This document shows, in pieces, positions 11,567-11,824 of a stretch of 64,000 bases of DNA. The position numbers were made by a program, and so were the translations under genes. The notes beneath the pieces were generated by a model. The model made no database searches and had not been told where the DNA came from. It saw only the letters and a list, made by a program, of their open reading frames with translations. Source of the stretch: Escherichia phage Turkey5; sequence record PQ471516.1. One strand, 5' to 3'. Position 1 is the first letter of the stretch. The number at the start of each line of letters is the position of its first letter.

Positions 11567-11824
11567 ATGGCTGTAGGATTTGCGAAGGACGGGGCCGAAC
11601 AAGACGAGATTAACGCAGTGATTCAGGCCGCTGTAAACCACGCTAGAAAGCAAATTAACGCACAAAGAGAATCACTGGTACATTGCCTCGACTGCGGCGA
11701 TAAAATCCCTGAGAATCGACGCCAGGCCGTTATAGGGTGCATGTATTGTATTACTTGCCAGGAGGATCATGATAGTACTTTTAAACGTCAACCGCGTAAT
11801 TGTTGGCATAGATCTATGAGATAA
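11567..11824 (+). CDS. TraR/DksA-family C4 zinc-finger protein (85 aa)
   Basis: C-x2-C-x17-C-x2-C motif (HCLDCGDKIPENRRQAVIGCMYCITCQ) preceded by 'ARKQINAQ', closely matching the TraR/DksA C-terminal zinc finger; RBS AATGAGG. Confidence 0.75.
   Translation: MAVGFAKDGAEQDEINAVIQAAVNHARKQINAQRESLVHCLDCGDKIPENRRQAVIGCMYCITCQEDHDSTFKRQPRNCWHRSMR

Follow-up and report, generated by a model that had tools for sequence, protein, structure and literature searches.

The stretch analyzed here, 64,000 nucleotides (nt) of Escherichia phage Turkey5 (sequence record PQ471516.1; hereafter the window), carries at positions 11567 to 11824 a small gene for a zinc-finger protein. A preliminary description of this DNA had read the gene as a phage-encoded TraR/DksA-type protein that reprograms host transcription, with residues close to TraR flanking the zinc finger, a promoter-like sequence of its own, and a long noncoding leader. 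The gene and its immediate signals are:

11567..11824, + strand: zinc-finger gene of the DksA/TraR-superfamily C4 class, YbiI type, homolog of gp294 of phage 121Q (open reading frame, profiles, substitution rates, AlphaFold2 and Foldseek)
11684..11758, + strand: zinc-finger core C40-x2-C43-x17-C61-x2-C64, including I47-P48-E49-x-R51-R52 (direct reading of the sequence)
11556..11559, + strand: Shine-Dalgarno sequence GAGG, 7 nt 5' of the ATG (sequence; invariant in relatives)

The open reading frame (ORF) encodes 85 amino acids (aa; MAVGFAKDGAEQDEINAVIQAAVNHARKQINAQRESLVHCLDCGDKIPENRRQAVIGCMYCITCQEDHDSTFKRQPRNCWHRSMR), and the CxxC-x17-CxxC motif is present just as described, formed by Cys40, Cys43, Cys61, and Cys64. 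Beyond this C4 set, the protein holds further cysteines at C79 and at C58, the position of TraR V55 and also one of the 2 extra cysteines of lambda Orf73. A second zinc site composed of C58, H68, C79, and H81 was considered and rejected because C58 and H68 vary across the clade. There is no further upstream in-frame start for this ORF, and we consider the start codon fixed because MAVGFAKDGA equals the N-termini of bacterial homologs residue by residue. The ratio of nonsynonymous to synonymous substitution rates (dN/dS), calculated against 5 Asteriusvirus homologs, lies between 0.04 and 0.23, which indicates purifying selection, and the frame is intact in every Asteriusvirus examined. A pseudogene reading is ruled out by dN/dS, both for this gene and for the 48-aa ORF that precedes it (described below). 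Across 53 homologs, no variation is seen at C40, C43, I47, P48, R51, R52, G57, C61, C64, or Q65.

Profile searches matched the protein to the DksA/TraR zinc-finger family, as the preliminary description had proposed. It scored 36.8 bits against Pfam PF01258 (zf-dskA_traR; gathering score 24.9, E 3.9e-9) and reached an E value of 5.5e-19 against PHROG 54, "DksA-like zinc-finger protein" (residues 12–77 on profile positions 9–73 of 75), a match that, as judged from these profiles, is far above chance level. This family call is correct yet already known, because 121Q (gp294) and fEgEco12 carry the same gene as "DksA-like zinc-finger protein." The claimed closeness to TraR had to be revised in favor of YbiI: the top NCBIfam model was NF008243/PRK11019 (YbiI type), with 80 bits and residues 1–74 on profile positions 1–73, versus 31 bits for the TraR equivalog, and a sequence search of the PDB returned Escherichia coli YbiI (2KGO) first (6e-12) and then TraR (5W1S/6N57, about 5e-6). 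By these comparisons, the protein is best placed in the DksA/TraR superfamily as a phage-specific branch of the YbiI subfamily. E. coli YbiI, the best structure match, has in common with it MAxG[FW]AxDxA, IPxxRR, and the zinc finger at about 43% identity; it differs in its tail (YNRRGSKDSQLR versus PRNCWHRSMR in the phage clade) and in being chromosomal and sigma-S-dependent.

To place the fold, we used an AlphaFold2 (AF2) model built with 53 homologs. Its mean predicted local distance difference test score (pLDDT) is moderate (72.7), and all elements of the DksA/TraR fold, a long N-terminal helix, a zinc ribbon, and a C-terminal helix, are found in it (helices at residues 7–29, 49–54, and 62–71). 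Foldseek aligned this model with TraR in complex with RNA polymerase (RNAP) (6N57_M) at a target template modelling (TM) score of 0.75 and a root-mean-square deviation (rmsd) of 2.3 Å over 68 columns, and with TraR 5W1S_M at a target TM score of 0.74. Matches to DksA chains in RNAP complexes (7KHI_M and 5VSW_M) were weak (E 0.08–0.3, target TM score 0.34), and E. coli DksA, which also contains the PF01258 domain but has a poorly matching fold (E 0.08–0.35), differs further in its length of 151 aa, its coiled coil, and its residues for contact with guanosine tetraphosphate (ppGpp). Altogether, these results show that the gene is real, constrained, and a member of the superfamily, that its predicted fold is TraR-like, and that the arginines corresponding to the rim contacts of TraR are conserved.

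Proteins of this kind are widespread. A total of 969 phage records match the zinc-finger protein, and 2,452 relatives were found at E ≤ 0.001 when 1.84 billion representative proteins were searched by profile. Relatives at 65–74% aa identity are found in T4-like phages (Moon/Merlin, JS10, SP18, and Yersinia phages), in the jumbo phage SE_PL, and in many Klebsiella phages; the T4-like homologs have an N-terminus and a C-terminal tail identical to those of the window protein. Phage lambda and Shiga toxin (Stx) phages encode proteins with 44–50% identity over the zinc-finger half (tblastn). The N-terminal MAxG[FW]AKDGAxQ is near-invariant and common to the phage clade and the bacterial YbiI-type proteins, and the IPExRR...G...CxxCQ core is invariant. 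The MAVGFAKDGA start of the window protein fits the YbiI-type signature MAxG[FW]AxDGA, which occurs in 113 of the 171 retrieved relatives bearing CxxC-x17-CxxC. At the C-terminal end, phage-clade members carry FKRxPRNCWHRSMR (PRNCWHRSMR is common to 42 sequences of this clade) and bacterial members YNRRGSKDSQLR, a tail that the window protein does not have.

The window belongs to a jumbo coliphage of the genus Asteriusvirus (121Q/PBECO4-like). Its locus is 92–97% nt-identical to that of Escherichia phages JNE01, Ecwhy_1, fEgEco12, vB_Ec-M-J, 121Q, and relatives, all members of this genus with genomes of about 350–385 kb. The ortholog is labeled "DksA-like zinc-finger protein" or "C-4 type zinc finger protein" in 121Q (gp294), fEgEco12 (g030), JP4, WPEC3, and others. 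Those of 121Q (YP_009101881.1) and fEgEco12 are likewise 85 aa long and occupy the same position between the 48-aa ORF and a GNAT gene, in a locus with 93–97% nt identity to that of the window; they differ from the window protein by a few aa substitutions only. In fEgEco12, the gene lies at 11,479–11,736, within an experimentally supported direct terminal repeat of 20,993 bp; in vB_Ec-M-J, the match is part of what is annotated as "Direct Terminal Repeats," and 2 sites appear wherever a record holds both repeats. The gene is thus located in a direct terminal repeat of roughly 21 kb and is present twice in each packaged genome. It is surrounded by dozens of small genes that follow consensus sigma-70 promoters, which implies early transcription by unmodified host RNAP, and in the related jumbo phage PA5oct host RNAP is used throughout infection (PMC7318152). 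Perfect sigma-70 promoters (TTGACA-N16-18-TATAAT) occur 12 times on the + strand and 0 times on the - strand of the window; 10 of the 12 are within its first 19 kb, a clustering that fits the terminal repeat as an early region transcribed by host RNAP. A scan of the window for transfer and transfer-messenger RNA genes found none.

The likeliest function of the protein, and in our judgment a probable one by analogy with characterized homologs, is to bind the secondary channel of RNAP and reprogram host transcription. The long N-terminal helix (7–29) would enter the channel, as with TraR, the zinc-finger domain would dock at the channel rim via R51/R52, and the short C-terminal helix (62–71) would touch the beta lobe. 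Binding would then alter initiation kinetics at host promoters without a need for ppGpp and shift the polymerase toward phage promoters. The features of TraR and lambda Orf73 that matter for such activity are DxxDxA, the C4 finger, R48/R49, and the C-terminal helix (Gopalkrishnan et al., PMC9239242). DxxDxA is part of the N-terminal helix, which extends to the active-site region, and this motif is critical for TraR function, its substitution lowering the activity of both TraR and Orf73, and R48/R49 touch the rim helices and beta'Si3, with the C-terminal helix touching beta Si1 (PMC9239242). All 5 phage TraR homologs tested in that study bind RNAP and inhibit ribosomal RNA and ribosomal protein promoters (PMC9239242). 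In addition, overexpression of YbiI is reported, as data not shown, to relieve a dksA-null strain of its amino-acid auxotrophy (Blankschien et al., PMC2613031).

Comparison with F-plasmid TraR (5W1S, 6N57) shows similar size, an N-terminal helix and a C4 zinc ribbon in both, a C-terminal helix that is predicted for the phage protein (model rmsd 2.1–2.4 Å), and retention in the phage protein of IPE and of the R48/R49 equivalents, R51/R52 (IPENRR versus IPEARR). The 2 proteins differ in that identity is 26–36%, the DxxDxA of TraR (D3, D6, A8) is absent from the phage protein, the pre-finger segment of the latter is 3 residues longer, and it carries an extra 14-residue basic tail. The helix predicted at 62–71 is not conserved in sequence with TraR and is followed by a clade-specific, low-confidence tail. 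Lambda Orf73, P2 Orf82, VHML Orf8, VP882 Orf61, and Xenorhabdus bovienii Gp34 are, like the window protein, small DksA/TraR proteins of phages, and they are early ones. The tested phage TraR homologs come from temperate phages and have a full or partial DxxDxA, whereas the window protein is of the YbiI type and is encoded in the terminal repeat of a virulent jumbo phage. Because the DxxDxA tip is absent, TraR-like reprogramming is to be read as a plausible, inferred activity. RNAP binding, early timing, and the sense in which transcription would change are inferences as well.

Several results weigh against TraR-like reprogramming, and some of them also support the main alternative, namely that this YbiI-type protein has another principal job, either with a different host or phage partner or as a passive channel competitor of DksA and Gre, so that its likeness to TraR is one of fold only. 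No DxxDxA was found upstream of the zinc finger by MAFFT alignment, BLASTP alignment, or regular expression. The equivalents of TraR D3/D6/A8 are A6/G9/E11 when counted back from the first finger cysteine (C37 = C40), V3/A6/D8 by MAFFT, and A10/D13/I15 by BLASTP, and D13 is not conserved within the phage clade; among the 171 retrieved motif-bearing relatives, D..D.A occurs upstream of CxxC-x17-CxxC in 4. Some intermediate-length C4 homologs of DksA/TraR that do not have DxxDxA are inactive (PMC9239242). The window protein also scores below the equivalog cut-offs of both subfamilies, with 80 bits against a cut-off of 96 for the YbiI model NF008243 and 31.3 bits against 108 for the TraR model NF010268, and below that of the TraR-family model TIGR02419 (49.2 bits, cut-off 59.7), and confidence in the AF2 model is low at residues 1–6 and 72–85. 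As for YbiI itself, it is sigma-S-dependent and otherwise of unknown function (PMC4447067), and Blankschien et al. favored an iron-related role for it (PMC2613031); our literature searches on YbiI function and on DksA-like genes of jumbo phages added no papers to those cited here. Another principal job is further suggested by the near-invariance of MAxG[FW]AxDGA from bacteria to phages, which points to a distinct conserved interaction, by the VP882 TraR homolog, which acts in complex with a partner, QisA (bioRxiv 10.64898/2026.07.27.740977), and by the apparent translational coupling of the zinc-finger gene to a variable small upstream ORF. However, the protein keeps the rim-contact arginines and has a TraR-like architecture overall, YbiI has been reported to rescue dksA auxotrophy, and neither the profile nor the PADLOC searches indicate an alternative partner or activity (the sole match among the PADLOC defence models, at 13.5 bits, is at chance level). 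We regard a different principal job as the less likely reading. In the case of secondary-channel binding, the helix tip MAVGFAKDGAEQ is unlike the DxxDxA of TraR and DksA, and the effect at the active site may therefore differ; with its invariant MAxGFAKDGA tip, the protein could be a secondary-channel effector that works unlike both TraR and DksA.

It is improbable, in our view, that the gene chiefly tunes the strong early sigma-70 promoters of the phage's own terminal repeat, up or down, with shut-off of host ribosomal promoters as a secondary effect. F-plasmid TraR sets a precedent, in that it activates the tra promoters pY, ptraJ, and ptraM, and consensus promoters are dense in this region, with the 12 perfect + strand sites noted above and, within 5.5 kb, 41 promoter-like sites where 20.6 are expected; yet consensus promoters usually give stable open complexes, the kind least sensitive to DksA and TraR. 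Scarcely credible is a decaying, functionless passenger of horizontal transfer. The gene has a G+C content of 46%, versus 22% and 29% in the 2 ORFs just upstream, which is consistent with exchange between phages, and the adjoining cassettes vary in presence between relatives. Selection analysis nevertheless effectively refutes such a passenger, given the dN/dS range and intact frame reported above, and the 65–74% identity to the T4-like phage homologs, with identical N-terminus and C-terminal tail, speaks against it too.

The region upstream of the zinc-finger gene, including the stretch that the preliminary description had taken for a noncoding leader (11240–11566), contains the following features:

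11230..11239, + strand: left 10-nt direct repeat TTAAAATAAT, including the stop codon of an upstream 65-aa ORF (sequence, alignment)
11242..11270, + strand: sigma-70-like promoter P1, TTGACA-17-CATAAT, with extended -10 TG and spacer palindrome GCCAGTACTGGC (promoter scan, 11/12)
11358..11385, + strand: weaker promoter-like site P2, TGGATC-16-TATAAT (TTGATC in PBECO4/JP4) (sequence, alignment)
11421..11567, + strand: 48-aa ORF, homolog of 121Q gp293, with a TTG start (GTG in PBECO4/JP4) (annotation, PHROG, dN/dS)
11559..11568, + strand: right 10-nt direct repeat TTAAAATAAT, including the stop codon of the 48-aa ORF and the first bases of the zinc-finger ATG (sequence, alignment)
10720..10747, + strand: promoter further upstream, TTGACA-16-TATAAT, perfect consensus (promoter scan)

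A stretch of 329 nt upstream of the zinc-finger gene is missing in phages ph0011, phAPEC6, and UE-S1. The 329 nt absent from ph0011 are those bounded by the 2 copies of TTAAAATAAT, a repeat coding for Leu-Lys-stop, with which both upstream ORFs end; ph0011 has one repeat copy, GGTTAAAATAATG, and the left copy of 121Q, AGTTAAAATAAT, is intermediate. The zinc-finger gene of ph0011 starts directly at the 65-aa ORF, with its ATG overlapping the stop codon of the latter, and the Shine-Dalgarno sequence of the gene is AAGG. The promoter ascribed to the zinc-finger gene exists as a promoter-like site (P1), both hexamers of which are kept in 4 relatives, but it belongs to this optional 329-nt cassette and is not specific to the gene. 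P2 has a perfect -10 hexamer and a weak -35, and fell under the threshold of the promoter scan in the window. The promoter at 10720–10747 can, judging by its position, also read into the zinc-finger gene, and no + strand terminator-like site was found between 10720 and 11824.

The leader is not noncoding, since it holds a conserved, in-frame, annotated 48-aa ORF under selection in addition to a structured RNA module. This ORF is annotated in 121Q (gp293), fEgEco12, and PBECO4, and matches phrog_38664 with an E value of 1.6e-31. Its frame stays open despite about 20% nt divergence, with 4–8 stops in the other 2 frames, and its dN/dS is 0.09–0.35. Full-length matches occur in 27 Asteriusvirus records and fall into 2 allele types. 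The TAA of this ORF shares bases with the ATG of the zinc-finger gene (TAATG), as is typical of translational coupling. In phage UB (MH383160), the zinc-finger protein is 98.8% identical to that of the window, but the 48-aa ORF represents the other allele type, with 60% identity, which indicates a recombination breakpoint between the 2 overlapping genes. We also considered the leader as a single long structured RNA and rejected this reading, as the z-score of its minimum free energy is weak (-2.1) and the greater part of its sequence diverges by about 20% between relatives; for the same reasons, a short module followed by a coding ORF is preferred.

Downstream of the zinc-finger gene, at 11888–12244, lies a GNAT acetyltransferase gene (Pfam PF00583) with its own perfect TTGACA-16-TATAAT promoter (11831–11858), and this gene is absent in PBECO4, SD-15_S21, and BF17, so that it forms a presence/absence cassette. 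Because the 329-nt cassette and the GNAT cassette are each missing in some relatives, the region is best described, from these alignments, as a mosaic of exchangeable promoter-plus-gene cassettes around a constant zinc-finger gene.

The structured module at the start of the 329-nt cassette is about 70 nt long and combines the -10 hexamer with 2 hairpins, a short covarying one before the invariant core CCCAYMGGGTGC and another after it. From the -10 hexamer on, about 11262–11322 are identical in 5 phages, whereas the rest of the leader differs by about 20%. The core occurs 10 times in the window versus 0.15 expected, always within the first 19 kb. The copies identified are:

11267..11338, + strand: copy in the leader of the zinc-finger gene, with helix 1 GACG/CGUC, invariant CUAACCCAUA, and helix 2 GGGUGCA/UGUAACU (alignment, covariance model)
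2434–2504, 9601–9672, 13344–13410, 16649–16720, and 18911–18977, + strand: further module copies (core search, covariance model)
24–95, 239–310, 2494–2560, and 5016–5087, - strand: module copies (core search, covariance model)

Each copy is situated 3' of a sigma-70-like promoter of the same type as P1, in the same relative orientation. Copies are often arranged as convergent pairs with about 10 nt of overlap, and several are found in unannotated gaps or antisense to genes (in the window and in the phages CBB, GAP32, and Muenster). Helix 1 (3 bp) shows compensatory changes, and helix 2 (7 bp, GGGUGCN/NGYAYCY) one-sided changes. In the window copies, 90% of the cells pair in the two-helix structure versus 22–50% in slid controls; this structure was derived by eye and then tested, and the figure leans on its source sequences. 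RNAalifold on the raw MAFFT alignment of the 10 copies returned a 4-bp hairpin only, with no covariation.

With a covariance model of the module, R1, the copy at 11267–11338 scored 74 bits. R1 found no further copies in the other 45 kb of the window. It detected 7–13 copies in each of the 4 terminal regions searched from other genera, those of Pectobacterium phage CBB, Cronobacter phage GAP32, Klebsiella phage Muenster, and Erwinia phage Hallingskeid; in CBB and Muenster, the region carries a terminal-repeat annotation. By these matches, the module is present in at least 4 further genera of RaK2-like jumbo phages. In a 44-member alignment, which was fitted to R1 and leans toward the structure for that reason, 89.5% of the cells pair, and helix 1 has 51 double-change cells versus 17.5 in shuffles. 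Rfam gave no match at the leader or at any module copy, with gathering thresholds over the whole window and permissive E values over 11200–11600 and 1–21000, and the module is apparently undescribed. PA5oct expresses abundant noncoding RNAs (ncRNAs) from its terminal repeat (PMC7318152); a link of the module to these RNA-sequencing-supported ncRNAs was rejected, as R1 found nothing significant in the PA5oct terminal repeat. In Hallingskeid, about 550 nt separate a module copy (10207–10279, +) and a DksA-like zinc-finger gene (10823–11083, -); given the opposite orientation, module and gene are again neighbors there, not leader and gene.

One minus-strand copy has its promoter at 5112–5084, the module at 5087–5016, and then a terminator-like hairpin at 5003–4983, which predicts an RNA of about 100 nt. 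In 4 other copies, the -35 TTGACT is inside a terminator-like hairpin (e.g., AAAGTGGTTGACTCCGGTCAGCCATTTT; 9571–9606, 13314–13349, about 16622–16660, and about 18885–18920), and a single element thus appears to terminate the transcript before it and initiate the one after it. This arrangement resembles the promoter-early stem-loops of T4-type phages. The module could be a cis-acting leader that acts on RNAP (put-like), or it could give small or antisense RNAs. It is possible, and we propose it tentatively, that the first 100 nt of the leader hold one copy of a new class of phage early-transcription RNA element (invariant core CCCAYMGGGUGC), with the zinc-finger gene as one downstream cargo.

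Other repeated elements were observed in the window. The palindrome AGTACT occurs 275 times in the 64 kb versus roughly 20 expected by base composition, and 13 other A/T-rich palindromic hexamers occur 3–49 times each; no literature on AGTACT enrichment in jumbo phages was found. The sequence CAGTACTG is present 55 times in the window, often in promoter spacers and just 3' of modules. A second repeat in 5' untranslated regions, GGGAGAA-N-TTCTCCC followed by an A-rich Shine-Dalgarno region, precedes several small + strand genes behind TTGCAA-16-TATAAT promoters (9135–9190, 12843–12900, 13965–14010, 10186–10211, and 12572–12594), and shows up as repeated spurious peptides (MFYMKGR..SP, GGEPFP) in the six-frame ORF list.

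The gene call in itself adds little, as it concerns a large annotated phage family and TraR homologs of temperate phages have already been characterized. What is refined here is that the protein is of the YbiI type and does not have DxxDxA, that it is preceded by an optional cassette with a small and apparently coupled gene, and that this cassette starts with an apparently undescribed RNA module. In virulent jumbo and T4-like coliphages, the many genes labeled "DksA-like" are of the YbiI branch, which does not have the DxxDxA tip, and the TraR-like activity attributed to them would therefore be an assumption; the conserved alternative tip of these phage proteins may work differently. The upstream region, in turn, illustrates the construction of the early region in these phages from interchangeable promoter-plus-gene cassettes, and it reveals a conserved structured RNA module.

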